Positions 1 to 37,665 of a DNA stretch of 40,038 nucleotides are shown here, piece after piece. Each line of letters begins with the position of its first letter. The first letter of the stretch is position 1. Position numbers and translations under genes: made by a program. Origin of the DNA: Dehalococcoidales bacterium (GTDB lineage Bacteria > Chloroflexota > Dehalococcoidia > Dehalococcoidales > UBA3254); assembly GCA_034429955.1 (NCBI GenBank), contig DAOUFH010000095.1:1-40038 (forward strand). Direction: 5' to 3'. A model generated the notes under the pieces. That model had not been told where the DNA came from and did no database searches. It saw only the letters and a program-made list of their open reading frames with translations.

Positions 1-310
1 CAGGTAAAGGGGGGAGATTCTTAGCGGTTAGACACTTCCAGCCTGAAATTTATTTTGAATTTCGTATTTATTCGTTTATTGGTATTTATTGGTAGTATTT
101 AGTACCCCTTCTCTCAAAACTAACAGCTGATAGCTGTCAGCTATTCTATAAGATCGCTTCAGGAGTGAAAGATTTTCGCGATGACGCTGGGTTTCCTGAA
201 TCATCAATCCTGATTCACCCCGGTTCCCTATTGATTTATTGGTACTTATTGGTGGCATTGGTATTATTGGTAGTATTTAGTACCTCTTCTCTCAAAACTG
301 ACGGCTAATT
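1..310 (+). repeat. Mosaic intergenic repeat, copy A (cut by window edge)
   Basis: Bases 1-50 (CAGGTAAAGGGGGGAGATTCTTAGCGGTTAGACACTTCCAGCCTGAAATT) closely match 27932-27980 and the reverse complement of 36397-36446. Two runs of TTATTGGTA-like 9-mers (about 75-100 and 235-278) are each followed by TTAGTACC..CTCTCAAAACTRAC. Hairpin ACAGCTGATAGCTGT at 123-137. Confidence 0.8.
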
Positions 311-9401: not shown

Positions 9402-9404
9402 ATT

Positions 9405-11690: not shown

Positions 11691-11694
11691 TAAA

Positions 11695-18421: not shown

Positions 18422-18707
18422 AAACGGTTTGAGGAGGTTTGGCTATTGGTAGAACCGTCAGTTTCAAGAGCAGGGGATTTAACCAAAATAATGCCCCCCT
18501 CTGCCCCAGATGATTCAGTCTCTTCCGGAATGAGGCTTCCAGCCTGACCAGTGAGCTGTCATCTTCGGGAAAAGGGGAATTCTAAGTGACAGGTGATAAG
18601 TTTCCGGTACCCAAAGGGGGCGGGCACGAGGCCCGCCCACCTGAACCCGATTGACGCCCTGAGACACTGTTGGGAAACCGCCTATGGCGGGCCGGGCAGC
18701 AACCTGA

Positions 18708-19829: not shown

Positions 19830-20864
19830 TCAAAAATTTATGATCACTTTCAAAACGCGGCAGGCAGCCACTATTTCCAGACCCCGGTTAATCTCAGACA
19901 AACTCAAACGGCTGGTTATCAAACGCTCAACCGGAATCTTCCCTGAAGCGATAAGTTCCAGGGCCTGTCTGTTCTGAACAGGAGTAGAGCCGTAAGCCCC
20001 TGTCAGAGACAGTTCCCGGTAGTGCAGTTGATTGAAATCCAGACAACCGGAGGCGGAGTCCGAGGGCAGTCCCGAGAAGCAGCAGAGTCTGCCGCCGCGG
20101 TTCAGCAAAGGTACCAACTGCGCGGCTGAATAGCTGGAACAGGCAGCGATGATGACATCTACACCCCGTCCGCCGCTAGATTCATGGATATATTCAGACA
20201 GGCTATGGCAGGAAACGTCTATCAGTGCAGCTGAGGTTAGTCCGGCAGCCGCAGCCAGACGGTCGGGACGGGATTCCGCCAGATAGAGCGCAGCCGCACC
20301 CCGGCTGGAGGCCAGCCAGCAATTCAATAGACCAAGCGGGCCGGCGCCCAGCACCAGCAGGGACTCACCGGAACGCCAGCCGACCTGATCAAAGGCATTC
20401 AAACAACTGGCCAGCGGTTCAGCCATAGCCGCCAGCTCGGAGGATAATCCGGCAGGTATAAGATTGACGCCGCCACCCCGAACGCCGGCAGCCGGCACGG
20501 TCAGGTAATCGGCAAAAGCGCCGTCATAGCTGAACCCCATAATTTGCAGACCGGTGCAGCGATTTTCCTGTCCGCTCAGGCAGGCCGGGCATTTTCCGCA
20601 AAAGACGCCGGGATAGACCTGAACCCGGTCGCCCTCCTTAAAAGGCTTCCCGGCAGCCCGGCTCTGAAAGACCACTCCGGCGATTTCGTGTCCCAAGACG
20701 CGCGGATAGACCAGAGCCGGCTGGTGATGCTTCAGCATACGGGCATCCACACTGCAAATGGAAGCAGCGGTCGTCCTTATCAGCAGGCCGCCTTCCGGGC
20801 AAGCCGGTAAAGGTCTGTCTTCGATAATCAAATTACCCTGTGATTTTAAAACAGCACATCTCAT
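19830..20864 (-). CDS. Zinc-dependent medium-chain dehydrogenase/reductase (threonine/sorbitol dehydrogenase-like)
   Basis: Catalytic Zn ligands C37..GHE(I), structural Zn cluster CGKCPACLSGQENRC, Rossmann motif LVLGAGPLGL. Confidence 0.8.
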   Translation of the reverse strand: MRCAVLKSQGNLIIEDRPLPACPEGGLLIRTTAASICSVDARMLKHHQPALVYPRVLGHEIAGVVFQSRAAGKPFKEGDRVQVYPGVFCGKCPACLSGQENRCTGLQIMGFSYDGAFADYLTVPAAGVRGGGVNLIPAGLSSELAAMAEPLASCLNAFDQVGWRSGESLLVLGAGPLGLLNCWLASSRGAAALYLAESRPDRLAAAAGLTSAALIDVSCHSLSEYIHESSGGRGVDVIIAACSSYSAAQLVPLLNRGGRLCCFSGLPSDSASGCLDFNQLHYRELSLTGAYGSTPVQNRQALELIASGKIPVERLITSRLSLSEINRGLEIVAACRVLKVIINF

Positions 20865-21028: not shown

Positions 21029-21059
21029 CCATCTCCATTAGTCCTAATCCACGAGGTAT

Positions 21060-21230
21060 TTACCATCCGGCAGGTCTTCTGGCTTCCGGATCAGCCTACC
21101 GGCTGAGGCCTTCCCACTCCTTCAGGAGCAGTGACCGATCAACAGCTTTCGTACCCGGATACAGCGGCGGGACCGCACCCGATTTCGACGGGTTTCCCTA
21201 TTAAGTCCCTGTTACAGGACACCGGACCTC
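21060..21230 (-). promoter_or_regulatory. Cobalamin (B12) riboswitch aptamer
   Basis: The minus strand reads AATAGGGAAACCCGTCGAAATCGGGTGCGGTCCCGCCGCTGTAT ... GTCACTG (B12 box) ... GGGAAGGC ... AGCCAGAAGACCTGCCGG. This matches the conserved core of RF00174 in order and spacing. Confidence 0.85.
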
Positions 21231-21308
21231 TATTAAATTGTTAGAAATATTGTAGCAGGAGCAAATGAGGAGTTTCAAGTTGTAGAACGTTGATATAGAT
21301 AAGCGCGT

Positions 21309-21839: not shown

Positions 21840-22043
21840 TTCAATACAGTTGCAGCCAATAACTCATATAGAAGAGAAGGATAGTTTACAGTAGACATCT
21901 AAATATCTTAATTATCTATTAATCTACAAGCTAAGCAGCTCGCCCTTCCCCGCAACTAAAAACGAATAACGAAAAACTAACCTTCTCCCCTAATGTCTAA
22001 CAGCTAACAATCTAAATATCTAGAAATCTAATTATCTAAAAGT
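21840..22043. repeat. Mosaic intergenic repeat, copy E (modules shared with 27838-27930 and 36446-36490)
   Basis: ACTAAAAACGAATAACGAAAAAC matches ACTAAACACGAATAACGAAAAAC at 36449-36471. CTAACAGCTAACAATCTAAATATCTAGAAATCTA resembles the reverse complement of 27850-27890. Confidence 0.6.
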
Positions 22044-22307
22044 CTACCTTATGGCGAAAATTATAATGACCAGCACGGTGACCAGGCTAATCATGATATT
22101 CCAGGGCATCGTGCTGCCGCCGGCGCTTTTAGACTGGCTCTTCACCAGCAGATAAATCAGGAAGAAATAAAACGGGCTGAGGGCCGCCAGCAGATTGATC
22201 GGTTTAGCGATGATATATTGAAACAAAAACGCGGTCAGGATAAGACAGAAAAAGGTTAATCCACCCAGTTTGGCTTCATCGGTCAGTTTCATGTTTTTTA
22301 GCTCCAA
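22044..22307 (-). CDS. Small integral membrane protein (3 predicted TM helices)
   Basis: 87-aa ORF, strongly hydrophobic, 55 nt downstream of herA on the same strand. The true start may be an internal Met. Confidence 0.5.
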   Translation of the reverse strand: MELKNMKLTDEAKLGGLTFFCLILTAFLFQYIIAKPINLLAALSPFYFFLIYLLVKSQSKSAGGSTMPWNIMISLVTVLVIIIFAIR

Positions 22308-22362: not shown

Positions 22363-23991
22363 TTATTTCCAGAGGTCGTCAGCATATTCATCGAGCTTAC
22401 CGGTATCAACCGCCGCACTGAACTCGCCGTAAGTATCTGGCCCGTATTCACGGGTGCGCACCACCACGGGCATAGGCACGGAATGTCCGAAGACCAGGAT
22501 TTGCTGTTTGGGCTCCAGGCGGGCCAGTACCGAGCGTAACTCACTCTTGCCAGACACTCCGGTCAGAACGGCATCCACGTCTTTTTCATTATCCAGCAGG
22601 CAGGTGATCTTGGTGCCCATCTGAGACATGATTTCCTCATCTATGGCACTGGGCCGCTGGTCGATGACCAGCAGAGTAACGTTATATTTACGCATCTCAC
22701 GCGCGATGGTGCCGAAAATGGTCTGGGAAGCCACTTCGGGATTCAAGAATTTATGGGCTTCTTCAATTGTGATGACCAGCGGGCGGGGCTTCTTGCTCTC
22801 CTCTCCCAGGGCATTTTCCATACGGTCGCGGTACTGATTATAGATACGTCGGGAGAGCATATTGGCCACCAGCATATAGGCCGCCAGGTCGGTATAACGG
22901 CCGAACTCCAGTACCACGTTCATGCCGCTGTCCAGGTATTTGAGAATTTTTTCCACAGCGTTTTCCTGAACATTGGGAGAGAGGAATTTCAAACGGACGA
23001 TTGATTCCAGGCCGCGGCGCAGATTGCTGAAAGAAGCCTCATGAATATTGAGGGACTTGAGCAGATTCTGGGTCTCTTCATTGTTTTCCATACTGAGCAC
23101 AGCCTGCATCCAGCGGCGGTCACCGAAACGGCGGGCAAACTGGTAAGTGGCCTGAACGGCATTATCGGTCAGGTTAAGCGTCTGACGCAGCAGAGCGATA
23201 TCTTCAGGTTCTATTTCGTTATAACCTAAACGCACCACCGCATCGGTACTGACCCTGCGACGGCGGGAACTTTCTTCATCCAGTGTAAACACCGCCACTT
23301 TATCCGGGAATAGCTGTTTTAAGCCTTTGGCCTCATAATGAGTTTCACTGGTACCTTTCCAACCATATTCATTGTGCATGTCGAATACCAGATTAACGGC
23401 CGCGCTTTTTTGCAGCATTCCAGCCAATAAAATACGGGTTAAAAACGTTTTACCGGTACCGCTCTTGCCGAAGATGCCGTTGGAACGCTTGACGAACTCG
23501 GAGAGGTCCAGACAGATTTTGGTCTCCATATCGAGAGGCGTGCCGATATAGAAGCGTTTATTGTCCTCGCCGCCGAAGACGATCTCAACATCTCTTTGAG
23601 AGGCTTCATCGACGGACGAAAAATGGCTGGGAATGGTCTTGACCGGCTGCGGGCCTTCACCGTCACCCATTACCTGTCCTCCGATGGTGAGCATGGGCAG
23701 GACATGCAGGGTGCCGTAGGTGCTGGTACCTGAAAGCACTTCTTTCAAAAAGGCATCCTCGACATCTGAGGGAACAGTATTGATCTGTTCGTCCACCACG
23801 CCCAGGGTAACATCGGTAATCATACCGAAAAAGCGGCGTTTCTGACCCTGAATAATCACATAACGGCCGACAGCCATATCCTCCACCGAAGCCGAGCCGT
23901 CCAGTTTAACATCGATGCCGTGAGTCAGGGAGCCGTTGACCACCACTCCCAAACGACGGCCTTTGAGCGGAATATCGTTAGACTGCGTCAT
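22363..23991 (-). CDS. herA: HerA-like hexameric ATPase/helicase (HAS-barrel + FtsK/HerA P-loop)
   Basis: N-terminal HAS-barrel-like GVVVNGSLTHGIDVKL..GRYVIIQG. Walker A GKSGTGKT. Walker B LVITIEEAH. LLVIDQRPS arginine-finger region. Confidence 0.8.
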   Translation of the reverse strand: MTQSNDIPLKGRRLGVVVNGSLTHGIDVKLDGSASVEDMAVGRYVIIQGQKRRFFGMITDVTLGVVDEQINTVPSDVEDAFLKEVLSGTSTYGTLHVLPMLTIGGQVMGDGEGPQPVKTIPSHFSSVDEASQRDVEIVFGGEDNKRFYIGTPLDMETKICLDLSEFVKRSNGIFGKSGTGKTFLTRILLAGMLQKSAAVNLVFDMHNEYGWKGTSETHYEAKGLKQLFPDKVAVFTLDEESSRRRRVSTDAVVRLGYNEIEPEDIALLRQTLNLTDNAVQATYQFARRFGDRRWMQAVLSMENNEETQNLLKSLNIHEASFSNLRRGLESIVRLKFLSPNVQENAVEKILKYLDSGMNVVLEFGRYTDLAAYMLVANMLSRRIYNQYRDRMENALGEESKKPRPLVITIEEAHKFLNPEVASQTIFGTIAREMRKYNVTLLVIDQRPSAIDEEIMSQMGTKITCLLDNEKDVDAVLTGVSGKSELRSVLARLEPKQQILVFGHSVPMPVVVRTREYGPDTYGEFSAAVDTGKLDEYADDLWK

Positions 23992-25595: not shown

Positions 25596-26825
25596 TTAAA
25601 TCCAGCGGGTGCGTTTACTGCGGCTTTTAACTGAATTACGCACCGGTAAATGCCGTTCGGTCAGAGTTTGCTCAACCAGGCTCCAGAACTGCTCTCTGTC
25701 CGCAGCGGTTACCACCGCCTGCTCATGAGCTTCACTTAATGCCACCGGGTAGCCGTGACCACGGCGGCACTGGTCGAGCACCAGAGCATGAGATAATTCC
25801 AGTAATTCAGGCCGGTCGGCCACCCATTGCGGAATCTCAACCCGGGCGATCTCATCCTCAAGCTTGAGATAATAGAAACAGACCTTGTGAGGGCCGTAAC
25901 CTGCCACAATTGAAGAGAGGTTCATAAAGACATCCGAACGCTGTGCGGGTTTAAGATAGGCATCGAACAGCAGACGGTCGTTAATATCCGCCAGGACATC
26001 GCAGGCTGCAACACCGGCCGAACAGGACTCCTCGCAACTCAACCTTGACTGCGGACAAATGGCCGCCCGCAGCACATTCACAACGTCATTCGAGCCGGGC
26101 AGACTGATATAGCTGACCAGTACCAGATTATTGGTTTGAGAGATGGTGCGTAATTGATTGAGGGGAGGTAAAAGGCCTCCGGCCAGTATGCTGGACTGGA
26201 CGAAATCCAGGTAAGACTCGAGCCCGAACAAGACCAGTGAACCGTCCATCATAGCTATAACATTGGGATTAGCTTGATAGTCCTGAGCCATTTTGGCCAG
26301 ATGACGGCATTCCTCAACCGAACGCAGGTTATCGGCCAGAGCACCTCTAATCTGCTGGGTACGACGGCTATTGCTGCTATCCCGAATAACCAGAGCTTCA
26401 TCATCAGCGTACAGGAAGGGCAGACTGTTCATATCAGCATCCGGACAAGAGCCGTAGCGCAGCATAACCGCGCCGATATTGATCAAATAGCAAAAAGCGG
26501 CCTGATTACGGTCCAGGGCGATATCGGAACCATCGGTAGCCACGACAGTATAATCAGCCGGCGCAGCCGGAGGGTCATAGCGACCGCTGATAGAACCTCC
26601 CAGGCCTGCCACGTTCCAGGGTAGATGGGCATCGGCCAGTTTTTGTTTGAGAGCAGCCAAATCCAGCGAGCGGTCCCCCAGTTTAGAGACTGCCAGATCA
26701 AGATGGGCTTTTAGCTCAAGGTTGCCGGCCTCCAGTTGGCCGGCCATAGCACCGATCTGTGCGGCTATTTTTGTGATATCCAGCGTCACGCCTGACTCCG
26801 CTAAAAAAGAGGGCAGGGTTTGCAC
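25596..26825 (-). CDS. nurA: NurA-domain 5'-3' nuclease
   Basis: VVATDGSD and AMMDGSLVLF motifs (NurA catalytic Asp context). 409 aa. Same strand and cluster as herA. Confidence 0.7.
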   Translation of the reverse strand: MQTLPSFLAESGVTLDITKIAAQIGAMAGQLEAGNLELKAHLDLAVSKLGDRSLDLAALKQKLADAHLPWNVAGLGGSISGRYDPPAAPADYTVVATDGSDIALDRNQAAFCYLINIGAVMLRYGSCPDADMNSLPFLYADDEALVIRDSSNSRRTQQIRGALADNLRSVEECRHLAKMAQDYQANPNVIAMMDGSLVLFGLESYLDFVQSSILAGGLLPPLNQLRTISQTNNLVLVSYISLPGSNDVVNVLRAAICPQSRLSCEESCSAGVAACDVLADINDRLLFDAYLKPAQRSDVFMNLSSIVAGYGPHKVCFYYLKLEDEIARVEIPQWVADRPELLELSHALVLDQCRRGHGYPVALSEAHEQAVVTAADREQFWSLVEQTLTERHLPVRNSVKSRSKRTRWI

Positions 26826-26842: not shown

Positions 26843-27736
26843 CTATTCCAGGGGCAAATCAATTTCATATTTTTTCAGCACTTCCCTTATCTGGGCGGCT
26901 GACTTTTCATCCGGTTCGACCAGGGGCAGCCGGGTCTGCCCGACGTTAAACCCGACCTGATTAAGAGCATATTTGACCGGGACCGGATTTGAAACAACAA
27001 AGAGTGTCTTCATCAGAGGCATCAACTTCAGATGGATAGCAGCAGCCTCCGCATTTTTACCGGCCAGGAAGGCATTGATCATCTTTTTAATCTGGAGTCC
27101 GACCAGATGAGCTGCCACACTGATGATGCCGTAGCCTCCGATGCTCATCATGGGCAGAGTATCCGAGTCATTACCGCTCCAGACCACAAACTTATCAGGA
27201 GTACCGGCAATGATTTTACCGATTTCCTCCATGTTGCCGCTGGATTCCTTGACCCCGATAATATTGGGAATCTGGCTTAGCCGGATAACCGTTTCAGACG
27301 CAATCGAAACAACGGTGCGGGAAGGCACATTGTAAAGAATGCAGGGCAATTGGGTAGATTCGGCAATCTTCTTGAAATGCTGATAAAGGCCCTCCTGAGT
27401 AGGCTTATTGTAATAGGGGGCAACCAGCAAACAGGCATCTACCCCGACCTTTTCCGCCGCCAGAGTAGCTTCGACAGCTTCAATAGTGCTGTTACTGCCG
27501 GTGCCGGCGATGATTGAGCCGCGTTTACCGACAACCTTTTTTACATCGGTATAAAGTTTCAGCTCTTCCTCGTGGGTAAGAGTGGGTGACTCACCGGTGG
27601 TGCCGGACAGGACCAGGCCATCGCTGCCCGATTTTAAGAGGGCCATAGCCAGCTTTTCAGCCTGCTGGTAGTCCACTTTGCCATCGGCGTCAAAAGGGGT
27701 AACCATGGCGGTGATTAAACGACCTAACTCTTTCAT
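26843..27736 (-). CDS. dapA: 4-hydroxy-tetrahydrodipicolinate synthase
   Basis: ITAMVTPF, GTTGESPTLT, YNVPSRT, and the Schiff-base Lys context GVKESSG. Start set at the ATG at 27736, preceded by GAAAGG. Confidence 0.92.
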   Translation of the reverse strand: MKELGRLITAMVTPFDADGKVDYQQAEKLAMALLKSGSDGLVLSGTTGESPTLTHEEELKLYTDVKKVVGKRGSIIAGTGSNSTIEAVEATLAAEKVGVDACLLVAPYYNKPTQEGLYQHFKKIAESTQLPCILYNVPSRTVVSIASETVIRLSQIPNIIGVKESSGNMEEIGKIIAGTPDKFVVWSGNDSDTLPMMSIGGYGIISVAAHLVGLQIKKMINAFLAGKNAEAAAIHLKLMPLMKTLFVVSNPVPVKYALNQVGFNVGQTRLPLVEPDEKSAAQIREVLKKYEIDLPLE

Positions 27737-27802: not shown

Positions 27803-27808
27803 ATTATA
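27803..27808 (-). promoter_or_regulatory. Candidate -10 box (TATAAT) for dapA downstream of repeat copy B
   Basis: The minus strand reads TTTCAC-18 nt-TATAAT about 65 nt upstream of the dapA ATG. Pattern match only. Confidence 0.3.
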
Positions 27809-27837
27809 GGCGAAAAATATGCCAAAGTGAAATGGAA

Positions 27838-28104
27838 ATTAGCGATTAGTTTTTAGACTTTTAGATATTTAGACGGATAGCTGTTAGCCATTGGGAGACA
27901 AGGTGAGTAATTCGTTCTTCGTTCTTCGTTTCAGGTAAAGGGGAGATTCTTAGCGGTTAGACACTTTCAGACTGGAATTTGCTTCGGATTTATTCTTGCG
28001 TATTGCGAATTTTATTGAGTCATTGGTAGTATTGGTACTTATTGGTATTATTTAATACCCTTTTCTCGAAACTGACAGCTAACGGCTGTCAACTGTCAGC
28101 TGCA
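27838..28104 (+). repeat. Mosaic intergenic repeat, copy B (between dapB and dapA)
   Basis: 27900-28102 is near-identical to the reverse complement of 36262-36490. It contains CAGGTAAAGGGGAGATTCTTAGCGGTTAGACAC, 9-mer run 28022-28050, and the hairpin module CTGACAGCTAACGGCTGTCAACTGTCAG. Confidence 0.9.
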
Positions 28105-28896
28105 TTATAACTTTAACAAGGTATCCAGTCCCTGTACCAGACCTTTAAGATTTACTATAGCCTGGGCAGCCAGAATAACGCCGGGCGCATAACATTCACG
28201 GCCGATGGTATCATGCCGGATGCTAAGAGTCTGGCCCTGTCCGCCGAAGAGGACTTCCTGGTGCGCCATCAGGCCGGGCAGACGGACACTATGCACATTG
28301 ATGCCGCTGTATTTTTCACCGCGGGCGGGATAATTTTTACCTTCGTCTAACGCCTGCAAAAAGGGTTTGCTGCGTGCAGCCGCCATCATTTTAGCGGTGG
28401 TTATGGAGGTGCCGGAAGGAGCATCCAGCTTTTTTTCATGATGCAGCTCGATAATTTCAGCATAGTCCATATATTTGGCTGCCAGTTTGGCAAAATGCAT
28501 CATCAGCACCGCACCCAGGGCGAAATTGGCTGCCAGGAAGATCCCGATATCGTTGGATTTAGCCAGCTGTTCCATTTCGGCCAGATCGCCGGCGCTGAAA
28601 CCGGTAGTGCCGATAACCAGGTTAACCTTGCGGGCGGCCGCTATACGCACCGCCGGCAGCGAGGCTTTGGCGATGGTAAAATCCACCATAACCTGGGGGT
28701 TGACCTCGGCCAGCAATTTATCCAGGTCGGCTGAGAAAGGAATACGGGAACCATCGTTCAGAGTCAATTCTGCAGCCGGGACCTTGATATCGACCGCCCC
28801 GACCAGCTTGATTTCAGGAGCGTTTTGCAAAGTATTAATCAGCACCTGACCCACCCGTCCCGAGGCGCCGTGTATAACCGTTCTGACTGGATTCAT
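28105..28896 (-). CDS. dapB: 4-hydroxy-tetrahydrodipicolinate reductase
   Basis: VIHGASGRVGQ NAD(P)-binding motif, GTTG, EIIELHHEKKLDAPSGT (E-x-HH-x-K-x-DAPSGTA signature). Confidence 0.92.
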   Translation of the reverse strand: MNPVRTVIHGASGRVGQVLINTLQNAPEIKLVGAVDIKVPAAELTLNDGSRIPFSADLDKLLAEVNPQVMVDFTIAKASLPAVRIAAARKVNLVIGTTGFSAGDLAEMEQLAKSNDIGIFLAANFALGAVLMMHFAKLAAKYMDYAEIIELHHEKKLDAPSGTSITTAKMMAAARSKPFLQALDEGKNYPARGEKYSGINVHSVRLPGLMAHQEVLFGGQGQTLSIRHDTIGRECYAPGVILAAQAIVNLKGLVQGLDTLLKL

Positions 28897-28990
28897 CTCA
28901 TCATCTCCCTCTGTCTGATTTTGCCGGAGTTTATATGATTAAGGATAACAGTTTAGAAGAAGAAAATCGAGCATAAAACGGAGTCCTGAC

Positions 28991-29026
28991 AAAAAACAAA
29001 AAGCCGGCAAAATTTGCCGGCTTTTC
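28991..29026 (-). terminator. Intrinsic terminator downstream of pnp
   Basis: Minus strand AAAGCCGGCAAA-TTTTGCCGGCTTT followed by TTGTTTTTT. Confidence 0.75.
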
Positions 29027-29040
29027 ACTGCTTTCAAATT

Positions 29041-31203
29041 CTATCTGCGTTCGTCGCGGCGGAAAGGAGGTCGACCTCCGCTACGGTTGTCGCGGCGAGG
29101 CGGCCGGGGCCGTTCTTCGCCGGGCTTCTCGAACATGGCGCGGCGGGAGAGGTTGATGCGTCCCATATGGTCGATTTCAATCACCTTGACGGTAATTTCA
29201 TCACCGACTTTGACCACATCTTCTACCTTTTCGACACGCTGTTCAGCCAGTTCGCTGATGTGTACCAGGCCCTCTTTGCCGGGCAGAATTTCAACCATAG
29301 CACCGAAGTTCAGAATACGGCTGACTTTGCCGGTGTAAATAGCGCCCGCTTCAACCTCTTTGGTCAGGCCTTCGATAATCTCGATGGCCCGGCGGGCCGA
29401 CTTTTCATCAGCCGAACCGATAACCACGGTACCGGAATCATCGATATCAATCGTGCACTTGGTCTCTTCGATAATAGAGCGAATCATCTTGCCGCCGGGA
29501 CCGATAACGGTGCCGATTTTTTCAGGATTTATCTTTATCTTGTACATACGCGGAGCGTATGGGCTGGTATTTTCGCGCGGAGCGGAAATAGTATTCAGCA
29601 TGATACCCAGGATAAACATTCGCCCATCATGAGCCTGACGGATGGCAGCCTCCAGGATTTCCAGGCTGATGCCTTTCAGTTTGATATCGAGCTGAAGGGC
29701 GGTAATGCCCTTTTCCGAACCGGCCACCTTGAAGTCCATATCGCCATAAAAATCTTCAACTCCAGCGATATCATTCAGGACTTTGAAATTGCCGTTATCA
29801 TCGGTAATCAACCCCATGGCAATGCCAGATACGGGACGGATGATAGGTACACCGGCATCCATTAGAGAAAGAGTGCTGCCGCAGGTGCTGGCCATAGAGG
29901 TACTGCCGTTGGAACCCAGACACTCCGAAACCAGGCGGATAGTGTAAGGGAATTTTTCATTATCTGGAATAACCGGCAGCAAGGCCCTTTCTGCCAGAGC
30001 GCCATGACCGATTTCGCGGCGTCCGGTGGTACCGATACGGCCAGTCTCTCCGGTGGAGAAGGGCGGGAAATTATAATGATGAATGTAATGCTTGGTCTCT
30101 TCGATTCCCAGACCGTCCAGCTGCTGTCTTTCCGCCATGGAACCCAGAGTCACAGTAGTCATAACTTGAGTTTCACCGCGATTGAAGAGGGCAGAGCCGT
30201 GCGTACGGGGCAGCAGGCCTACTTCGCAGGTAATAGGACGGATATCCAGCAGTCCGCGACCGTCCATACGGAAAGATTTCTCCAGTACGCTGGCGCGCAT
30301 CATGGCTTTCATGTGCACGTCATAAGCGGTATTGATATCGGCAGGTTCAAATTGCTCTTTTAATTTTTCCTGGAGGTCCAGTTTGATGGCTTTTTCAGCG
30401 GCATCTCTCTCATCACGGACAGGCATGCCTATGCATTTAGCCATCGCCTCGCCGGCGTTAGCAACGATAGCCTCAATAACTTCGGGTTTATTCCAGCGGG
30501 CCGGGGCTTCCAGCTTGGGTTTGCTGATTCCCTGCAAGAACTCTTCCTGCAAGGCAATAATCGCCTGATTGGCCTCATGACCGAACTTCAAAGCGCCGAC
30601 TACAATGTCCTCCGGTACCTCTTTAGCTCCGGCTTCCACCATCACCACATTCTTGCTGGTGCTGCAGACAAACAGGTCCAGATCTCCCTCCGTCAGGTCG
30701 GGTAGAATGGGGTTCAACACATACTGACCGTCTTTATAACCCACAGTCACACCGGAGGCCGGACCGGCAAAAGGAATTTCAGATAAGCCTAGAGCGGCGG
30801 AAGCACCGATGATGCCCAGCAGATTGGGGTCATTCTCCTGATCGGTTGAAAGTACAGTCACCACCACCTGAATATCATGATTCCAGGTCTTGGGCAGGAG
30901 AGGCCGGATAGTGCGGTCGGTCAGACGGCTGGCCAGAGTGGCTTCAGTGGTCGGACGGCCTTCACGGCGAATAAAACCGCCGGGAATTTTACCGGCGGCA
31001 TACATTCTTTCTTCATAATCAACAGTCAAAGGCAGAAAATCGACACCCTCTCTAACGTTGGAACTGTTTACGGCTGTAACCAGCACAATGGTATCTCCAT
31101 ATCTGACGGTAACAGCTCCGCTGGCCTGTTTGGCCAATTTACCGGTTTCAAGTGTGAGTTTTCTACCCGCGATTTCGCAGGATACGGATTTAGGTTCTAA
31201 CAA
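29041..31203 (-). CDS. pnp: Polyribonucleotide nucleotidyltransferase (PNPase)
   Basis: Two RNase PH domains, KH (IGPGGKMIRSI) and S1 (GKVSRILNFGAMVEI). TTG start with an AGGAG RBS immediately after the rpsO stop. Confidence 0.95.
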   Translation of the reverse strand: MLEPKSVSCEIAGRKLTLETGKLAKQASGAVTVRYGDTIVLVTAVNSSNVREGVDFLPLTVDYEERMYAAGKIPGGFIRREGRPTTEATLASRLTDRTIRPLLPKTWNHDIQVVVTVLSTDQENDPNLLGIIGASAALGLSEIPFAGPASGVTVGYKDGQYVLNPILPDLTEGDLDLFVCSTSKNVVMVEAGAKEVPEDIVVGALKFGHEANQAIIALQEEFLQGISKPKLEAPARWNKPEVIEAIVANAGEAMAKCIGMPVRDERDAAEKAIKLDLQEKLKEQFEPADINTAYDVHMKAMMRASVLEKSFRMDGRGLLDIRPITCEVGLLPRTHGSALFNRGETQVMTTVTLGSMAERQQLDGLGIEETKHYIHHYNFPPFSTGETGRIGTTGRREIGHGALAERALLPVIPDNEKFPYTIRLVSECLGSNGSTSMASTCGSTLSLMDAGVPIIRPVSGIAMGLITDDNGNFKVLNDIAGVEDFYGDMDFKVAGSEKGITALQLDIKLKGISLEILEAAIRQAHDGRMFILGIMLNTISAPRENTSPYAPRMYKIKINPEKIGTVIGPGGKMIRSIIEETKCTIDIDDSGTVVIGSADEKSARRAIEIIEGLTKEVEAGAIYTGKVSRILNFGAMVEILPGKEGLVHISELAEQRVEKVEDVVKVGDEITVKVIEIDHMGRINLSRRAMFEKPGEERPRPPRRDNRSGGRPPFRRDERR

Positions 31204-31220
31204 GATCGGTTCTCCTATGA

Positions 31221-31487
31221 CTACTTGCGCAGTCCGAGTTTCTTAATAACGGTGTTATATCTTTCCACGTTTTCTTTGCTGAGATAGCTCAACAGTCTTC
31301 TTCTCTGACCGACCAGCTTGAGCAGTCCGCGCTGAGTGTTGAAATCATGCTTGGCAGCGGCCATATGGCGGGTCAGCTGATTGATTCTTTCGGTAAGAAT
31401 CGCAATCTGAATTTCGGTCGAGCCGGTATCACCGTCATGCATCTTGAAAGAATCGATTAATTGGCTTTTCTTGTCTTTGGTTAACAT
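31221..31487 (-). CDS. rpsO: 30S ribosomal protein S15
   Basis: 88 aa. GDTGSTEIQIA..LTERI..LT.H...KHD..+RGLL.LV..RR.LL.YL signature. Confidence 0.95.
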   Translation of the reverse strand: MLTKDKKSQLIDSFKMHDGDTGSTEIQIAILTERINQLTRHMAAAKHDFNTQRGLLKLVGQRRRLLSYLSKENVERYNTVIKKLGLRK

Positions 31488-31605
31488 TTTACCCCCGAAA
31501 TTTTATCTACAGATTAATTAAATATTATTTTCGCAAATCAAATCATTTTAACATAAATGGGCAAGGGATGTAAATTTGACTGAACAGCCGCCTTCAAAAC
31601 GGCGG

Positions 31606-32391
31606 CTACAGGCCGCGGCCGACCGCTTTTTTGGCTTCCTCCCAGAGGCCGTTCTGTTCATCAAAAGAAAGGCGGCCCAACTCCTGGCCCCGCTCACGAC
31701 ACAGCTTTTCCATGTAGCTGAAGCGGCGGTAAAATTTACGGTTAGCCGCTCTAAGGGCCGATTCGGGTTCGACCCCCATACGGCGGGCGATATTGACCAG
31801 GGTAAAAAAGAGATCACCGAACTCCTCGCTTTTTTCTTCCTCGGTAGCAGCCGCTTTGAACTCTGCGACCTCCTCGGCCAGCTTTTCTATAACGCCGTCG
31901 ATGTTTTCCCAGTCAAAACCTGTCTGGGCGGCCCGGCGCTGGATATCCTGGCTGTAAGCCACGGCCGGCATTTGTTTGGGCACACTATCCAGCATGGAAG
32001 CCTGCGAGTCCCGTTCTTTTTTCTTGATGGCTTCCCAGTTCTGAGAGACCTCATCCGCATCTTTGACCTGCACATCGGCAAAGACATGAGGATGACGCCG
32101 TATCAATTTCCGGTTGAGGCCGCGCAGCACATCAGCCAGGGTAAACTCGCCTTTTTCCATCGCTATCTGCGAATGCAACATGATTTGCAGCAGGATATCA
32201 CCCAGTTCAGCCGCAAGTTTGGAATTATCCCCCTCGTCCAGGGCTTCCAGTGCCTCATAGCTCTCTTCCAGGAGATATTCTCTCAGGGAGACATGCGTTT
32301 GCTTTTTATCCCAGGGGCAGCCCTGAGGGCCACGCAACGTAGTAATTATGTCAACCAATTTTTGAAATTCCAGGCCAGCGGAATCAGGCAT
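31606..32391 (-). CDS. mazG: MazG nucleoside triphosphate pyrophosphohydrolase (tandem MazG domains)
   Basis: LRGPQGCPWDKKQTHVSLREYLLEESYEALEAL, plus a second EEVAEF...EFGDLFF repeat. Confidence 0.9.
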   Translation of the reverse strand: MPDSAGLEFQKLVDIITTLRGPQGCPWDKKQTHVSLREYLLEESYEALEALDEGDNSKLAAELGDILLQIMLHSQIAMEKGEFTLADVLRGLNRKLIRRHPHVFADVQVKDADEVSQNWEAIKKKERDSQASMLDSVPKQMPAVAYSQDIQRRAAQTGFDWENIDGVIEKLAEEVAEFKAAATEEEKSEEFGDLFFTLVNIARRMGVEPESALRAANRKFYRRFSYMEKLCRERGQELGRLSFDEQNGLWEEAKKAVGRGL

Positions 32392-32517
32392 ATCAAACTC
32401 CGGAAATATGAAATAGATTTAAAGACACAGAGTAGTTCAAACCCCTGTATTCCCACGGTCGGGGTGAAAATCAGGGAAGGCTTACTGCCCGGGTTGGAAC
32501 ATTAATAAGTCCGCATC

Positions 32518-33270
32518 CTACTTTTTATATTGAGCTGCCAGCTCCGGCTCGTACGGGGCCCGGCGGCCCGAACAACGCTGATTGGTACACAACCGGCAGC
32601 TGATGAACTCAACATCGGTAGAGAAATAAATACCGGAATGCGACTTGGTGGGCAACAAAGCGCAGTTCTCCGAAAGAGTAACGCCGATATAGCCCTCCAC
32701 ATCTCCGATTATCTGAAAAAGCTTGCGCTGCTGGTCGATAGGAAACGACTCAGTCTCCCCGGGATTGAGATTGGTCAGGGTACCGGTCTTATAGTTTTCC
32801 TGCAGAAAATTCTTGAGATAGCCGGTGGCATAAAAAAGCAGGGTATTTTTCAGGGAGTCCAGGCAATAACGCTGCAGAACGTCCTGGGGTGGAGGAATTT
32901 GCTCTACTTCGACACCCACGGTGGTCATACAAATAAAAGCCGTTTCCACCTCCCCCAGCTTTTCCCTGACCAGCTTGCTATCGAATTCAACCCCGTCGAT
33001 TTGCAGTGTTTCAGGCGTTTTATGGTCGACACAGACCACCTTAATCAAAGCCTTGGGCCGGGCAACAGGTTTAACTATCTCGACCAACTCCTTCAAAGGA
33101 GCCTCAAAGCGTTTGGTGTTGCCGTGAATATGCATCTGGGTGAGAATGTCCTGTATATCCAGTTTAAAGGGCACATCCAGGACGATAACTTTATTATCAG
33201 CCAGTTGGGCCATGCGCAAGTCCTCCGGAATAATAGGGTTTACCTGTTCTATTATATAATCATTATACAA
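32518..33270 (-). CDS. Stand-alone methionine-synthase activation-domain-like (Met_synt_B12-like) protein with C-terminal Cys cluster
   Basis: LNPGETESFPIDQQRKLFQIIGDVEGYIGVTLSENCALLPTKSHSGIYF resembles the MetH reactivation-domain core (L.PG..W.I..Q..LF.L....IGV.LTES..M.P.KSVSGI.F). C-terminal CRLCTNQRC. The opposite-strand ORF is rejected. Confidence 0.55.
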   Translation of the reverse strand: MYNDYIIEQVNPIIPEDLRMAQLADNKVIVLDVPFKLDIQDILTQMHIHGNTKRFEAPLKELVEIVKPVARPKALIKVVCVDHKTPETLQIDGVEFDSKLVREKLGEVETAFICMTTVGVEVEQIPPPQDVLQRYCLDSLKNTLLFYATGYLKNFLQENYKTGTLTNLNPGETESFPIDQQRKLFQIIGDVEGYIGVTLSENCALLPTKSHSGIYFSTDVEFISCRLCTNQRCSGRRAPYEPELAAQYKK

Positions 33271-33508
33271 TGATACGGTTTGCAGTTTACAGTTTTCAGC
33301 AGGTCTGCTTGCTGTTAAAGCCAGATATCCCGTAGCTGTGCCTGATTGACTTCACCGGACGGCGCTGGTAACATGAGGATTGGGACGACATAACAACCAG
33401 GACACTCGAAAAATCCCCGATCCTTGAGCGGACTTCCGGTATAGTCCGGCAATATCAACGAGTAAAATCAATAAAACAGCAACGCCGGTCTTTCCCACTA
33501 AAAAAGTC

Positions 33509-34567
33509 ATGTGGAAAACATTAGGCCAATCCAAAATAGTAGAATACCTGCAAAGAACAGTGTCAACAGGCACTGTTTCGCATGCGTACCTGATTTGCGG
33601 CCTGCCGCAAACCGGTAAAATGACTCTGGCCAAAGACCTGGCTATGGCGCTAAACTGCTCAGCCGCCCAGGATCAACGTCCCTGCGGCAACTGTAGCAGT
33701 TGCCGTAAGATCGCCGAGGGCAAACATGCCGATGTGCAGGTCATAAATCTGGACATCGGAGAAAACGGGGACGGCAAAGAACGCAAGCTGATCGGCATCG
33801 GACAGATTAACGATGTGCTGCATTCCGCCAATCTGCCGCCTTTTGAGGGCAGGCAGAGGGTCTATATTATAGAGGAAGCCGGTGATCTGTCGCTGGACGC
33901 CGCCAACCGGCTGTTGAAAACACTGGAGGAACCGCCCGCAGGGGTAACTTTTATCTTGTTGACTGCCAACCTGAAGTTGATACCGGCTACCGTGATATCG
34001 CGCTGCCAGAAATTAAGCCTCTCCCGCATGAAGACCTCTGAGATAGAAAGCCTGCTGGTCAATGACTATAAGCTGGATACGGAAAAAGCCGCTTTACTGG
34101 CACGCCTGAGCCGGGGCTGTCCGGGCAAAGCAGTAGAGCTGGTTCAAAACAGCAAATCGCTGGAGGAACGTCGGGAAGCCTTTGAAAAAATGCTGGAGGT
34201 TGCGGCAGGCGGTTACTCGGAACGATTCGCCTCGGCCGCCCAGATGGCCCAGCAATATTCTAAAAAGAGGGAGACAGTATATGGCACCCTGGAAGCGTGG
34301 ACCGACTGGTGGAGGGATATCCTTCTGGCTAAAACTGGCTGTGATAGTGATATTATTAATATTGATTATAGGTCTAATCTGTCTGAAATGGCAGGGAATC
34401 TTGGGCTGGCCGATATAAAAGAAACCCTTCAGAGCTTCGGCGACGCTATGAAACAGTTGAAAATGAATGTTAATCCGCGCTTAGTGCTGGAAAGCTTGAT
34501 GCTGAATATGGCCAGACCCGGCAGGGAGAAAGCCGGCACATTGCGAGCAGGGGTGAGAAATGCCTGA
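33509..34567 (+). CDS. holB: DNA polymerase III subunit delta'
   Basis: SHAYLICGLPQTGKMTLA, zinc module CGNCSSCRKI, YIIEEAGDLS, SRCQ sensor motif. Confidence 0.88.
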   Translation: MWKTLGQSKIVEYLQRTVSTGTVSHAYLICGLPQTGKMTLAKDLAMALNCSAAQDQRPCGNCSSCRKIAEGKHADVQVINLDIGENGDGKERKLIGIGQINDVLHSANLPPFEGRQRVYIIEEAGDLSLDAANRLLKTLEEPPAGVTFILLTANLKLIPATVISRCQKLSLSRMKTSEIESLLVNDYKLDTEKAALLARLSRGCPGKAVELVQNSKSLEERREAFEKMLEVAAGGYSERFASAAQMAQQYSKKRETVYGTLEAWTDWWRDILLAKTGCDSDIINIDYRSNLSEMAGNLGLADIKETLQSFGDAMKQLKMNVNPRLVLESLMLNMARPGREKAGTLRAGVRNA

Positions 34568-35627
34568 AATAGTGGGAATCAAATTTAAAAAAGCCGGCAA
34601 GGTCTATTATTTCGACCCGGCCGGAATTGAACTTCAAAACAATGATTACGTAGTAGTGCAGACCGCCCGCGGAGTTGAAATAGGGCAGGTCTCCATTACA
34701 CCGCGGCAGATACTTGAGTCCGAAATCACGTCGGAACTGAAACCTATCCAGCGCAAAGCCGGTCCGGAAGACGTCAAGAAGGCCCAGGAATACGCTGAAA
34801 AAGAAGCCCCGGCATTGGCCGAATGCGCCAAAATGATCAACCGGCTGAATCTGCCGATGAAGCTGGTCTCAGCCGAATATAACCTGGACGGCAGCCGTTT
34901 GACTTTTCATTTCACCGCTGAAGAACGGGTGGACTTTCGCGAGCTGGTACGGGAACTGACGGCCTTTTTCAAGACCAGAATCGAACTGCGGCAAATCGGC
35001 CCGCGTGACCAGGCCAAAATTGTAGGGGGACTGGGACGTTGCGGACGCCCGCTGTGCTGTGTCTCTTTCCTGAGCGAATTCAACCCTGTTTCTATCAAAA
35101 TGGCCAAGGAACAGGACTTGCCGCTGGACCCCATGAAGATATCCGGAGTCTGCGGCAGATTACAGTGCTGCCTGGCCTATGAAAGCCAGCAGTACAAAGA
35201 AGCCAAAGCCAAAATGCCGCGCAAAGGCCAGCCGGTGGAAACCCCTTCCGGTAAAGGCTTCGTGGTGGGTGTTTTCCCTCTGAAGGAAAGCGTGATGGTG
35301 GAACTGGAAAGCCATGCCAGCGCGGAATTTCCTATGAACCAGATTAAACTGCTGGAATATCAACGCCATCCGTCGCCTCAAGCCGAGGATAGCGATGAAG
35401 CAAAAAGCGAAGCAGTTAGCGAACTGGACGAGGCCGGCAATGATCAAGCGCTCCGGCCCAAAACCGGAGTTACCACCCCGCCGGCCGAAGCTCCGCGTCA
35501 GGATAAAATAGCTCCCGCTGCCGGCCTGCCGGGAGAAGTCGAAACAGCCGAAGTAAAACCGGAAACTCTGCCGCCCGGTAATATCTCTTCCGCACCCGAA
35601 CCACCCCAACCGCCGGAAGAACATTAG
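34560..35627 (+). CDS. PSP1-domain protein (RicT/YaaT-like) with long Pro/Glu/Ala-rich C-terminal tail
   Basis: The PSP1 C-terminal domain signature GRCGRPLCCVSFL...GVCGRLQCCLAYE is present. Overlaps holB by 8 nt, the classic holB-yaaT arrangement. Residues about 270-355 are low complexity. Confidence 0.85.
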   Translation: MPEIVGIKFKKAGKVYYFDPAGIELQNNDYVVVQTARGVEIGQVSITPRQILESEITSELKPIQRKAGPEDVKKAQEYAEKEAPALAECAKMINRLNLPMKLVSAEYNLDGSRLTFHFTAEERVDFRELVRELTAFFKTRIELRQIGPRDQAKIVGGLGRCGRPLCCVSFLSEFNPVSIKMAKEQDLPLDPMKISGVCGRLQCCLAYESQQYKEAKAKMPRKGQPVETPSGKGFVVGVFPLKESVMVELESHASAEFPMNQIKLLEYQRHPSPQAEDSDEAKSEAVSELDEAGNDQALRPKTGVTTPPAEAPRQDKIAPAAGLPGEVETAEVKPETLPPGNISSAPEPPQPPEEH

Positions 35628-35654
35628 AACCAGGCTTGCTTAACTGAATAAAAC

Positions 35655-35685
35655 CAAAAAACCGCTGGATCCAGCGGTTTTTTTG
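35655..35685. terminator. Bidirectional intrinsic terminator between the PSP1 gene and the HNH gene
   Basis: AAAAAACCGCTGGATCCAGCGGTTTTTTT: a perfect palindromic GC stem flanked by A-run and T-run. Confidence 0.85.
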
Positions 35686-35698
35686 CGGTCGAACTATC

Positions 35699-36214
35699 TC
35701 AAGCAGCTCTGGGAGGCAGATATTTCTGCCAGTGTTGCTGGGTTTCAATGAAATGATAGGGGATATTCAAATAGATACTGCCGGCCGGTCTGACCGGAAT
35801 GGAAAGCAGCTTCATATGGGCCTCTTCAGGAGTACGCCCGGCCTTACGCCGGTTGCAATAGGCACAGGCACTGACCAGATTTTCCCAGGTATGCTTGCCG
35901 CCCTGGTGGCGCGGGATAACATGGTCCAGAGTTAAAACCCGGCTTTGCTTGCCGCAATACTGACAGGTATAATTGTCACGGTTAAATATTTCGATGCGGG
36001 TTAATTTGGGCTGGGGGTGAGGTCTTCTGATCTGGTAGGAGAGGCGGATTACCGAAGGGATTTCATACAGGGCACTGGCAGTATGGATATATCCGGAGCC
36101 ATTCTCCAGCATCTCTGCCTTGCCGCTGAAGATTAGGGAGAGTGCTCGCCTTGCACGGCAGACGTTTAAAGGTTCATAACTCTGGTTCAGGACCAAACAT
36201 GGGTGTTCCACCAT
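35699..36214 (-). CDS. HNH endonuclease (McrA-like small core-genome type)
   Basis: CQYCGK...LDHVIPRHQGGKHTWENLVSACAYCNRRK, the canonical HNH with a CxxC...CxxC zinc site. Confidence 0.85.
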   Translation of the reverse strand: MVEHPCLVLNQSYEPLNVCRARRALSLIFSGKAEMLENGSGYIHTASALYEIPSVIRLSYQIRRPHPQPKLTRIEIFNRDNYTCQYCGKQSRVLTLDHVIPRHQGGKHTWENLVSACAYCNRRKAGRTPEEAHMKLLSIPVRPAGSIYLNIPYHFIETQQHWQKYLPPRAA

Positions 36215-36261
36215 AGCAAATCCTTAACGCCTTTTCTTAATTCTAAACGCTTTGTCAGTGG

Positions 36262-36490
36262 GAATGCAACTATAGCTGACAGCTATCAGCCGTCAGTTTC
36301 GAGAAAAGGGTATTAAATAATACCAATAAGTACCAATACTACCAATACTACCAATGACTCAATAAAATTCGCAATACGCAAGAATAAATCCGAAGCAAAT
36401 TCCAGTCTGAAAGTGTCTAACCGCTAAGAATCTCCCCCTTTACCTGAAACTAAACACGAATAACGAAAAACGAATTACTCACCTTATCTT
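36262..36490 (-). repeat. Mosaic intergenic repeat, copy C (inverted relative to copy B)
   Basis: The reverse complement is near-identical to 27900-28102. It has one extra GGTAGTATT unit (9-mer run 36319-36356) and small differences in the CGTTCTTCG and hairpin modules. Confidence 0.9.
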
Positions 36491-36516
36491 CAATTTTGTT
36501 GTATGATTAGAATAAG

Positions 36517-37665
36517 ATGTCGGAAAAACAAACTTCAATCAAACGAATCGCTTTATTAGGTTCCACCGGTTCCATCGGTCTGCAGACGCTGGATATTGTA
36601 AGGGCCCACCCTGATAAATTCAAAATCATCGGGCTGGCAGCCGGCCATAATTTGAAACTGCTGGAAAAACAAATCGTCGAATTCAAGCCCCAGCTTTATC
36701 ATCACCTGGAAAAAGCCGCTGCTCTAAACTTTGAAGACGCCAGGTTCGCCTCGCCGGAGGAAATCGCCTCTAACATCAATGTAGACCTGGTAGTGGGCGC
36801 CACCGCCGGCCCGGCCGGCTTGAAACCGCTGCTGGCAGCCATTAAAGCCGATAAGACGGTCGCTCTGGCTAATAAAGAGCCGCTGGTGATGGCCGGAGAT
36901 ATCATATTAAGCAGAATGAAGCAAAGCCATAGCTGGATATTGCCGGTGGACAGTGAACACAGCGCCATCTGGCAGTGCCTGAACGGCGAGAGCCAGAAAC
37001 CGGCCAAGATTATCCTGACCGCTTCCGGCGGACCTTTCCTGCGTTACAAACAGTCTCAGCTGGAAAAAGTTACTCCTGAAGAGGCCCTTAAGCATCCCTC
37101 CTGGAAGATGGGCAAGAAGGTAACTATCGACTCAGCCACCCTGATGAACAAAGGACTGGAGGTAATTGAAGCCCATTGGCTTTTCGACATGCCTTATGCC
37201 AGCATTGAAATAGTCATACATCCCCAGAGCATTGTACATTCGATGATAGAGCTGGCCGACGGCTCGATCAAGGCCCAGCTCAGCCGGCCGGACATGCGGT
37301 TCCCGATACAGTTTGCCCTGTCTTACCCTGACAGGCTCAGCAACGCTGATTTACCTAAAATGGACTGGTCGGCAATCGGCAGTCTGCAATTTGAAAAGCC
37401 GGAGATTGATTCTTTCCCCTGCCTTAAACTGGCTCTGGAAGCAGGTAAAAAAGGCGGGACCTATCCGGCAGCTTTATGCGGGGCGGACGAAGCGGCGGTA
37501 GCTCTCTTTCTGGACGGCTCTATCAGTTTCACCGAAATCCCGCACCTGATCGAAAAGGTACTGGACAAACACATCAACAACACTCAGCCGGACATCGAAG
37601 AGATTTACCAGGCCGAACAAGAGGCCCGGAAAACCGCATACAGTTTTGCCGGAGGTATCAAGTAG
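36517..37665 (+). CDS. dxr: 1-deoxy-D-xylulose 5-phosphate reductoisomerase
   Basis: ALLGSTGSIGLQTLDI, LANKE, PVDSEHSAI, NKGLEVIEAH motifs. Confidence 0.95.
   Translation: MSEKQTSIKRIALLGSTGSIGLQTLDIVRAHPDKFKIIGLAAGHNLKLLEKQIVEFKPQLYHHLEKAAALNFEDARFASPEEIASNINVDLVVGATAGPAGLKPLLAAIKADKTVALANKEPLVMAGDIILSRMKQSHSWILPVDSEHSAIWQCLNGESQKPAKIILTASGGPFLRYKQSQLEKVTPEEALKHPSWKMGKKVTIDSATLMNKGLEVIEAHWLFDMPYASIEIVIHPQSIVHSMIELADGSIKAQLSRPDMRFPIQFALSYPDRLSNADLPKMDWSAIGSLQFEKPEIDSFPCLKLALEAGKKGGTYPAALCGADEAAVALFLDGSISFTEIPHLIEKVLDKHINNTQPDIEEIYQAEQEARKTAYSFAGGIK

Follow-up and report, generated by a model that had tools for sequence, protein, structure and literature searches.

We analysed a 40,038-nt stretch of DNA (hereafter the window) from an uncultured Dehalococcoidales bacterium (contig DAOUFH010000095.1, assembly GCA_034429955.1). 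All coordinates are positions in this window, and negative numbers denote positions to its left. Within the window, an 8.2-kb block of genes is bracketed by two copies of an intergenic repeat, B and D, which lie in opposite orientations (Table 1). An earlier reading of the sequence, referred to as the original prediction, had placed dapB, pnp, rpsO, mazG, holB, ricT and an HNH endonuclease gene in this block. The gene calls agree with that list, add a hypothetical gene and leave dapA and dxr outside. The original prediction had also regarded the repeats as a recently duplicated or converted pair that could drive inversion of the block or carry promoter or leader function for dapA and dxr.

When B (27896-28106) was locally aligned with reverse-complemented D (36263-36489), 200 of the 210 aligned columns were identical, confirming that near-identical inverted repeats flank the gene block. 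The indels that separate the two copies measure 7 nt (in a heptamer array), 1 nt (in a G run), 9 nt (one ATTGGTAGT unit, extra in D) and 1 nt. The longest exact matches measure 98 and 55 nt, in agreement with the approximately 95 and 39 nt reported earlier, given the additional 9-bp unit in D. A repeat finder returned inverted arms at 27937-28052/36325-36440 (116 nt, 93%) and at 28022-28094/36274-36346 (73 nt, 93%), and gapped BLAST aligned B and D at 87.7% identity over 228 nt. With an E value of 7e-77, the similarity is by this measure far beyond chance.

Table 1. Repeat elements, their internal features and the genes around the B/D pair.
Feature	Position	Strand	Modules and remarks
R1	-6073..-5891		L-M1; BLAST, nhmmer
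R2	-3483..-3095		K-L-M1-U-9mers; BLAST, nhmmer
Short fragment	-2415..-2372		Self-BLAST
R3 (copy A of the original prediction)	-121..310 (window part 1-310)	+	L-L-M1-U-M1'; inverted pair with R2
Copy C of the original prediction	13320-13570	+	Motifs only (AAGGTGAGTAA, CTGTTAGC, AGTCAGCT); downstream of RNase P RNA
Degenerate M-end fragment	18453-18531	-	CTCTTGAAACTGACGG..ACCAATAG; intergenic; weak ninth, nhmmer
E	21898-22046	-	K-L only; between DUF8049 gene and dcd
dapA	26843-27736	-	297 aa from conserved ATG
dapA promoter-like site	27803-27831	-	TTCACT-17-TATAAT; outside B
B	27845-28106	+	K 27854-27897, L 27901-27964, M2 27966-28094; between dapB stop codon (28105-28107) and dapA promoter-like motif
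L-module heptamer array in B	27911-27930	+	TTCGTTC
Longest exact B/D run	27940-28037 = reverse complement of 36340-36437		98 nt; local alignment
9-mer array in B	28022-28052	+	ATTGGTAnT, 3 units
Second exact B/D run	28022-28076 = reverse complement of 36292-36346		55 nt; local alignment
Predicted hairpin, M2 palindromic end	28070-28101	-	14-bp stem, -19.9 kcal/mol, z = -5.2; few bases after dapB stop, dapB sense strand
dapB	28105-28896	-	
Terminator-like hairpin after rpsO-pnp	28995-29029		
pnp	29041-31203	-	
rpsO	31221-31487	-	
mazG	31606-32391	-	
Hypothetical gene	32518-33270	-	250 aa; weak sub-threshold Met_synt_B12 match
holB	33509-34567	+	
ricT/PSP1 gene	34560-35627	+	
HNH endonuclease gene	35699-36214	-	171 aa
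D	36263-36489	-	L 36485-36413, M2 36411-36273; divergent spacer, HNH start 36214, dxr start 36517
9-mer array in D	36316-36355	-	4 units in window
L-module heptamer array in D	36447-36474		
Block TTTTGTTGTATGATTAGAATAAG	36494-36516	+	TTTTGTTGTATGAT.AG..ATAAGATG; directly before dxr ATG, outside D; also present where D is absent (relatives with 68% Dxr identity), conserved
dxr	36517-37665	+	
R8	45206-45543 (L090:18690-19027)		K-L-K-L-K-L; 5.2 kb right of window end

B and D were found to belong to a larger family. We compared 55 kb of sequence, made up of the window and contig extensions on both sides, with itself by BLAST, and then searched it by nhmmer with the individual modules as queries. 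This self-comparison, a check that had been proposed for counting the copies, detected the family at at least eight intergenic loci on both strands, together with a weak ninth fragment. Among the other copies listed in the original prediction, those at 1-310 and 21840-22046 are clear members, but that at 13320-13570 gave no family match by BLAST or nhmmer and resembles the family only at the level of motifs. The claim that B and D are far more alike than other pairs holds within the window and fails beyond its left edge, where BLAST identity is 91.8% over 184 nt for R1/R2 and 92.6% over 351 nt for R2/R3, a further inverted pair whose members lie 3 kb apart at the window edge. Since these pairs are equally similar, inverted repeats around genes are a recurrent by-product of the repeat family and are not peculiar to the B/D block.

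The copies are mosaics of modules that consist mostly of short tandem units (8-, 7- and 9-mers) linked by unique stretches. Module K is a TTAGAY-type 8-mer array plus GCTGTTAGACATCAGGGGAG, module L comprises AAGGTGAGT, (TTCGTTA)n and TTAGTTTCAGGTAAAGGGGGAGATTCTTAGCGGTTAGAC, and modules M1 and M2 have a variable centre, (ATTGGTAnT)n, TACCCTTYTCTCRAAACTGAC and a palindrome of the GCTGATAGCTGTCAGCT type; module U is about 90 nt long. Copies differ in the modules they carry and in unit counts. At R8, three tandem K-L units of about 121 nt (89-99% identity) form a minisatellite-like array, and a 106-kb Joint Genome Institute (JGI) contig terminates there. Short stop-free stretches of 28-70 codons are present in the elements and differ between copies, and six-frame peptides of the elements matched none of 5.8 billion proteins; the family thus appears to be without protein-coding capacity. 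We also noted that the L module (27900-27945 and 36430-36485) mimics the eukaryotic 5' and 3' splice-site consensus, with AAG/GTGAGT, a pyrimidine-rich heptamer run and TTTCAG/GTAAAG, which is probably a coincidence. The same module contains a Shine-Dalgarno-like GAAGGTGA with no start codon suitably spaced.

Copy number was estimated from the summed depth of Logan unitigs in runs X1 and X2, matched to D and A, with words at least 85-90% alike. Flank depth was about 20x in run X1. Summed depth was approximately 600-700x for the L and 9-mer modules (about 30-35 times the flank) and 100-140x for module U (about 5 times the flank). By this rough estimate, the common modules are present in tens of copies genome-wide. 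A 90-nt unitig covering the M2 centre (36348-36437) had a depth of 47x, about twice that of the flank, and the M2 centre is therefore present in two genomic copies, B and D.

The module composition of D is informative about how the copies are related. Its L module is 93% identical to the L units of R8 (BLAST), whereas over about 50 nt it departs from the L module of B by three mismatches and two indels (local alignment). Its M2 matches B alone, the M2 centre being identical in both, and its palindrome is of the A1 type, from which the palindrome of B differs. Such a patchwork, with the L module of D resembling R8 and its M2 resembling B, suggests that copies have undergone recombination or gene conversion rather than simple copy-and-paste. 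Some unitigs link modules in other combinations, including one that skips 36364-36440. The proposal of a recent duplication or gene conversion finds support: B and D are nearest relatives over M2, and recombination or conversion between copies is plausible, the left module of D being nearer to R8 than to B.

Comparison of samples revealed further changes within the elements. Contigs of sample 3300050336 match the window at 100% identity, and one from sample 3300050335 departs from it at a single base; samples 3300050582 and 3300044580 contain near-identical variants, and sample 3300045916 contains a strain about 98.5% identical (L094). Over 20.8 kb, the differences between samples were a single-nucleotide polymorphism at 31962 (C/G) and the loss of one 9-bp unit (36331-36339) in D. 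Over a further 11.5 kb, differences were found only in A1, comprising a 9-bp unit and five clustered substitutions at 107-131, and this patch makes A1 identical to R2 in the same assemblies. The unit-count polymorphism in D looks real, since both forms are supported: a 63-nt unitig, found at 2x depth in runs X1 and X2, shows the 3-unit form, and three other samples show the 4-unit form. The patch in A1 could reflect either gene conversion or a path swap by the assembler. These between-sample changes point to slippage and, possibly, to gene conversion.

The runs that contain these sequences are anaerobic digester, biogas, bioreactor and sludge metagenomes, and exact window proteins were found on JGI and Logan metagenome contigs. 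Among GTDB species representatives, the closest PNPase (76% identical) belongs to a metagenome-assembled genome of an uncultured Dehalococcoidales bacterium, followed by other Dehalococcoidia and Chloroflexota. The repeat family gave no BLAST match in 15 related Chloroflexota loci, no nhmmer match in the relative L093 and no match in viral contigs. The alignment with L095, which has no dispersed repeats, breaks across D, and the spacers of L098-L100 show only motif-level resemblance. The family is absent or unrecognisable in the relatives examined and so appears to be lineage-specific. A scan of the metagenome contig collection, which evidently lacks the source assemblies, with a 20-nt core returned one unrelated match in another organism (L085). 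The match, exact over 21 nt of the core (AGATTCTTAGCGGTTAGACAC; L085:6070-6090), lies just upstream of a gene start and adjoins what is presumably a tRNA gene; the other modules are absent, and the match may be due to chance. The relatives' spacers carry short repeats of their own, namely a GTnnTGA heptamer-arm hairpin after dapB (L093:6790-6860) and CGTCCCG heptamers before dxr (L095:3440-3500), and heptamer-based intergenic sequences may be a clade-wide habit. We found no description of such repeats in the literature on repeats or miniature inverted-repeat transposable elements (MITEs) in Dehalococcoidia.

Based on these analyses, it is likely that B and D are members of a lineage-specific, non-coding, mosaic family of intergenic repeats in an uncultured digester Dehalococcoidales bacterium. 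Slipped-strand changes in the short tandem units would alter the family, and homologous recombination or gene conversion between copies would reshuffle its modules, with no element-encoded enzyme nearby. As the only two carriers of M2, B and D would be the latest pair between which that module was duplicated or converted, and their opposite orientation would be incidental. They seem to occupy free spacer just upstream of the conserved dapA and dxr core promoter regions, replacing the shorter and unrelated short repeats of relatives. Any effect in cis would probably be modest, with the palindromic end perhaps serving as a hairpin after the dapB stop codon similar to those of repetitive extragenic palindromic (REP) sequences. 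The 98-nt core could permit a rare RecA-type inversion, the parental orientation being the one maintained.

Several observations weigh against this explanation. We found neither a transposase nor terminal inverted repeats nor target-site duplications that would account for the spread of the elements to new loci. Copy number derived from unitig depth is rough, and the contrast between eight loci in 55 kb and about 30 genome-wide suggests local clustering or an undercount of diverged copies; if the depth estimate holds, the 55 kb carries a disproportionate share of the copies. Both A1 variants occur at about 1x in run X2, so the apparent conversion of A1 could be a path swap. In addition, folds of whole elements are no more stable than those of shuffled sequences (z about -1 in both orientations), and the placement of the hairpin relative to genes is inconsistent in other copies.

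Species-specific, dispersed, non-coding intergenic repeats form a general class (PMC3372372), and the elements described here have its features: copies longer than 85 nt at multiple unlinked intergenic sites, unrecognised in the relatives examined and non-coding. The bacterial interspersed mosaic elements (BIMEs) of Escherichia coli are cited as a major cause of intergenic differences among strains (PMC3372372 ref. 31, PMC2817692). Like BIMEs (REP/PU units), the present elements are extragenic, dispersed mosaics of few modules in variable number, with palindromes as hairpins at gene 3' ends. Unlike BIMEs, they have no GC-rich REP palindrome of 20-40 nt in alternating orientation, their AT-rich modules being made up mostly of 7-, 8- and 9-nt tandem units, and there is no sequence similarity. 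REP units are imperfect palindromes of 20-40 nt in alternating orientations, whereas in the present family the M end alone is a palindrome.

BOX elements of Streptococcus pneumoniae (boxA-(boxB)n-boxC) are modular, intergenic, species-specific and non-coding, with variable unit number and fixed terminal modules. The STAR elements of Staphylococcus aureus (PMC3532100) resemble the present family in being modular, intergenic, species-specific and non-coding, with a variable number of internal units. Both differ from it in module sequences and sizes and come from unrelated taxa, and the copies found here begin and end at different modules. Cyanobacterial STRR sequences (short tandemly repeated heptamers) and small dispersed repeats are intergenic tandem heptamer arrays that sometimes form hairpin arms. 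The present elements likewise contain tandem heptamers, and L093 has a heptamer-arm hairpin in its dapB-dapA spacer, but the phylum and the unit sequences are different and the heptamers here lie inside longer unique modules. The tandem units of about 120 nt (K-L three times at R8) and the variation in unit number between populations are reminiscent of Mycobacterium MIRU/VNTR (variable-number tandem repeat) loci. Unlike MIRUs, which lie inside operons and often have small open reading frames (ORFs) overlapping their neighbours, the elements have no conserved ORF. They share no sequence with the BIME, BOX, STAR, STRR or MIRU families and behave like that known class. The repeats are thus a new family of a known kind, and this is an ordinary explanation for a real repeat pair.

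B and D do share the same orientation relative to dapA and dxr, as had been noted, and this would be accounted for if the elements had been recruited in front of these genes as cis-regulatory cassettes acting as promoter, leader or insulator. Only 27 nt separate the end of D from the dxr ATG, which places any -35 region or upstream element of dxr within D. Sigma-70-like motifs with TG (TTGGTA-17-TATTAT) are present in the 9-mer arrays, facing HNH in D, and a stable palindrome hairpin stands right after the dapB stop codon. However, alignment of the spacers of four close relatives without B showed that the dapA -10 (CATAATATT in relatives, TATAATATT in the window) and the leader AAAAGGTTGGTT...AAGGTTA.AGATG are conserved. 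The dapB-dapA spacer is 368 nt long here, compared with 138-170 nt in relatives with 80-81% DapB identity, in which heptamer repeats form a short segment directly behind the dapB stop, ahead of the conserved -10 and leader. B is therefore additional DNA between the dapB stop and the conserved dapA promoter region. The conserved block at 36494-36516 is the probable dxr core promoter, and relatives with 68% Dxr identity have nothing corresponding to 36249-36493, a stretch made up almost wholly of D; their spacer is an unrelated 193 nt with CGTCCCG heptamers.

Orientation with respect to flanking transcription is mixed across loci, with B and R3 reverse, R2 and E forward, and D and R8 in divergent spacers. 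In B the promoter-like motif runs antisense into dapB, module content varies by locus, and Rfam returned no family match at the gathering score, only a weak hit to CsrC (E = 5.8). Since the elements do not include the conserved dapA and dxr blocks, which relatives lacking the elements also possess, and since orientation is mixed, the suggested promoter or leader role of B and D found no support and is unlikely; the broader idea of a recruited cassette we also consider unlikely. Structurally, only the terminal palindrome recurs among the copies. At the same place 3' of dapB, L093 has a heptamer-arm hairpin (z = -3.5) and L098 has none. The predicted fold suggests that the B palindrome is a candidate REP-like 3' hairpin of dapB.

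It seems quite unlikely that the elements are non-autonomous transposons, either MITE-like or REP/REPIN-like, mobilised in trans by a transposase elsewhere in the genome. Such an origin would fit dispersed, strictly intergenic elements of 150-450 nt that occur in tens of copies, are lineage-specific, represent extra DNA relative to close relatives and have one palindromic end. On the other hand, the terminal inverted repeats, target-site duplications and constant ends expected of MITEs are missing; the ends vary, and neither terminal repeats nor duplications are visible at B when it is compared with the shorter spacers of relatives. Tandem K-L arrays are included in the family and the hallmarks of REP sequences were not seen. 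No transposase or RAYT-type domain was found among the genes called in about 75 kb, the Pfam calls including no RAYT or IS200/IS605-like Y1 transposase. A composite transposon was ruled out, the flanking repeats being only about 230-260 nt long and non-coding.

We regard it as very unlikely that K, L and M constitute an undescribed, actively spreading, minisatellite-like mosaic element that colonises promoter-proximal spacers without a classical transposase, homogenises itself by gene conversion and drives rearrangements. If this were true, the rearrangements could include rare inversion of the 8.2-kb block, leading to cryptic structural heterogeneity in digester populations.

The location of a DNA block between inverted repeats is shared with shufflons and phase-variation switches. 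Unlike these systems, in which short specific sites and an adjacent recombinase flip promoters or variable genes, the repeats here are generic, the block is a housekeeping one and one orientation was seen. The genes in and around the block are those from dapA to dxr in Table 1, and no recombinase or invertase gene was found in or beside it. A perfect run of 98 nt is long enough for homologous recombination, given the minimal homology required by RecA, and the inverted core of B and D would be available as a substrate. The spanning JGI contigs, three at the dapB-B-dapA junction (L001, L003 and L090) and three at the HNH-D-dxr junction (L001, L090 and L092), are all parental, and the 98.5% strain L094 retains the HNH-D-dxr junction. 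The rpsO-pnp order is constant in 16 related Chloroflexota loci, with dapB and dapA following wherever the contig reaches; closer relatives (80-81% DapB identity) retain dapB-dapA-nurA, and those with 68% Dxr identity retain HNH(-)/dxr(+). The equally good inverted pair R2/R3 is in one orientation in both assemblies that span it.

Besides the assembled contigs, the data comprise Logan k=31 contigs and unitigs, which end at the repeats because they are too short to bridge the 98-nt core. A Logan contig of 8275 nt corresponds exactly to the block from one copy to the other, and the breaks at both copies neither confirm nor exclude alternative junctions. The spanning contigs, L094 and the relatives all share the present orientation, and the gene calls include no recombinase; this orientation is therefore ancestral and the sole one seen in the assemblies examined. 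The synteny comparison thus gave a single fixed orientation, the outcome that the original prediction itself had set down as counting against inversion. RecA-mediated inversion of the block is unsupported, and the coexistence of two genome isomers generated by crossover between B and D, with the block from dapB through pnp, rpsO, mazG, holB and ricT to HNH flipped, is extremely unlikely. The presence of the inverted pair cannot be taken as a sign that essential genes are surrounded by a switch or by a regulatory cassette.

The family has modest relevance to strain typing, to the quality of genome assemblies and to the study of how repeats change in an uncultured lineage. The elements break short-read assemblies of the organism, contig ends fall on them, and they can yield chimeric or collapsed repeat sequences in assemblies. 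Counts of the 9-bp unit are VNTR-like markers that separate near-identical populations. Dehalococcoidia are generally described as small-genomed, and mosaic repeats at about one locus per 7 kb are therefore a modest curiosity.

The dapB-dapA pair had been described as split by copy B, but it was already apart. The asd gene lies between dapB and dapA in all 14 of the more distant relatives with a readable junction, including L005 (76% PNPase identity); in these distant Dehalococcoidia (L005-L019 and L045) it encodes an aspartate-semialdehyde dehydrogenase of 341 aa. This gene is gone from the site in the source organism and its closest relatives, which have either the 138-170 nt spacer or, on the contig encoding P0007 in sample 3300075153, a 386-nt gap without asd, and it was not found in the 55 kb examined. 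Since the closest relatives without B already lack asd at this site, the loss of asd appears to predate element B, and displacement of asd by B was ruled out. A tie between the HNH gene and the repeat was likewise rejected. In relatives that lack the repeat, this gene is likewise conserved next to dxr in divergent orientation, and so does not appear to behave as a mobile gene. At the hypothetical gene, near full-length ORFs are present on both strands (32518-33273; 250 aa minus, 247 aa plus), of which the gene callers choose the minus strand.

Adjoining dapA is a cluster of NurA (25596-26825) and HerA (22363-23991) genes with two unannotated genes (278 aa and 201 aa) in between, whose products gave no Pfam or PADLOC match. 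The same cluster is found next to dapA in the closest relatives L093, L098 and L100. Elsewhere in the window, a low-GC island at 8064-12985 (33-36% GC compared with about 50% elsewhere) carries four genes. Their products are a protein of 445 aa resembling Type II methyltransferases, a GHKL-ATPase of 761 aa that weakly matches a Type II restriction enzyme, an unknown protein of 210 aa and an HNH nuclease of 221 aa similar to PtuB. The island probably serves in defence and was probably acquired horizontally; next to it is a fragment of a truncated NMT1_3 gene (13060-13290). We also found a class A RNase P RNA at 13588-13940 (-; 299 bits) and a cobalamin riboswitch at 21052-21241 (-; 109 bits), the latter upstream of ADH-like (19830-20864) and glycosyl-transferase-family-3 (18708-19814) genes.

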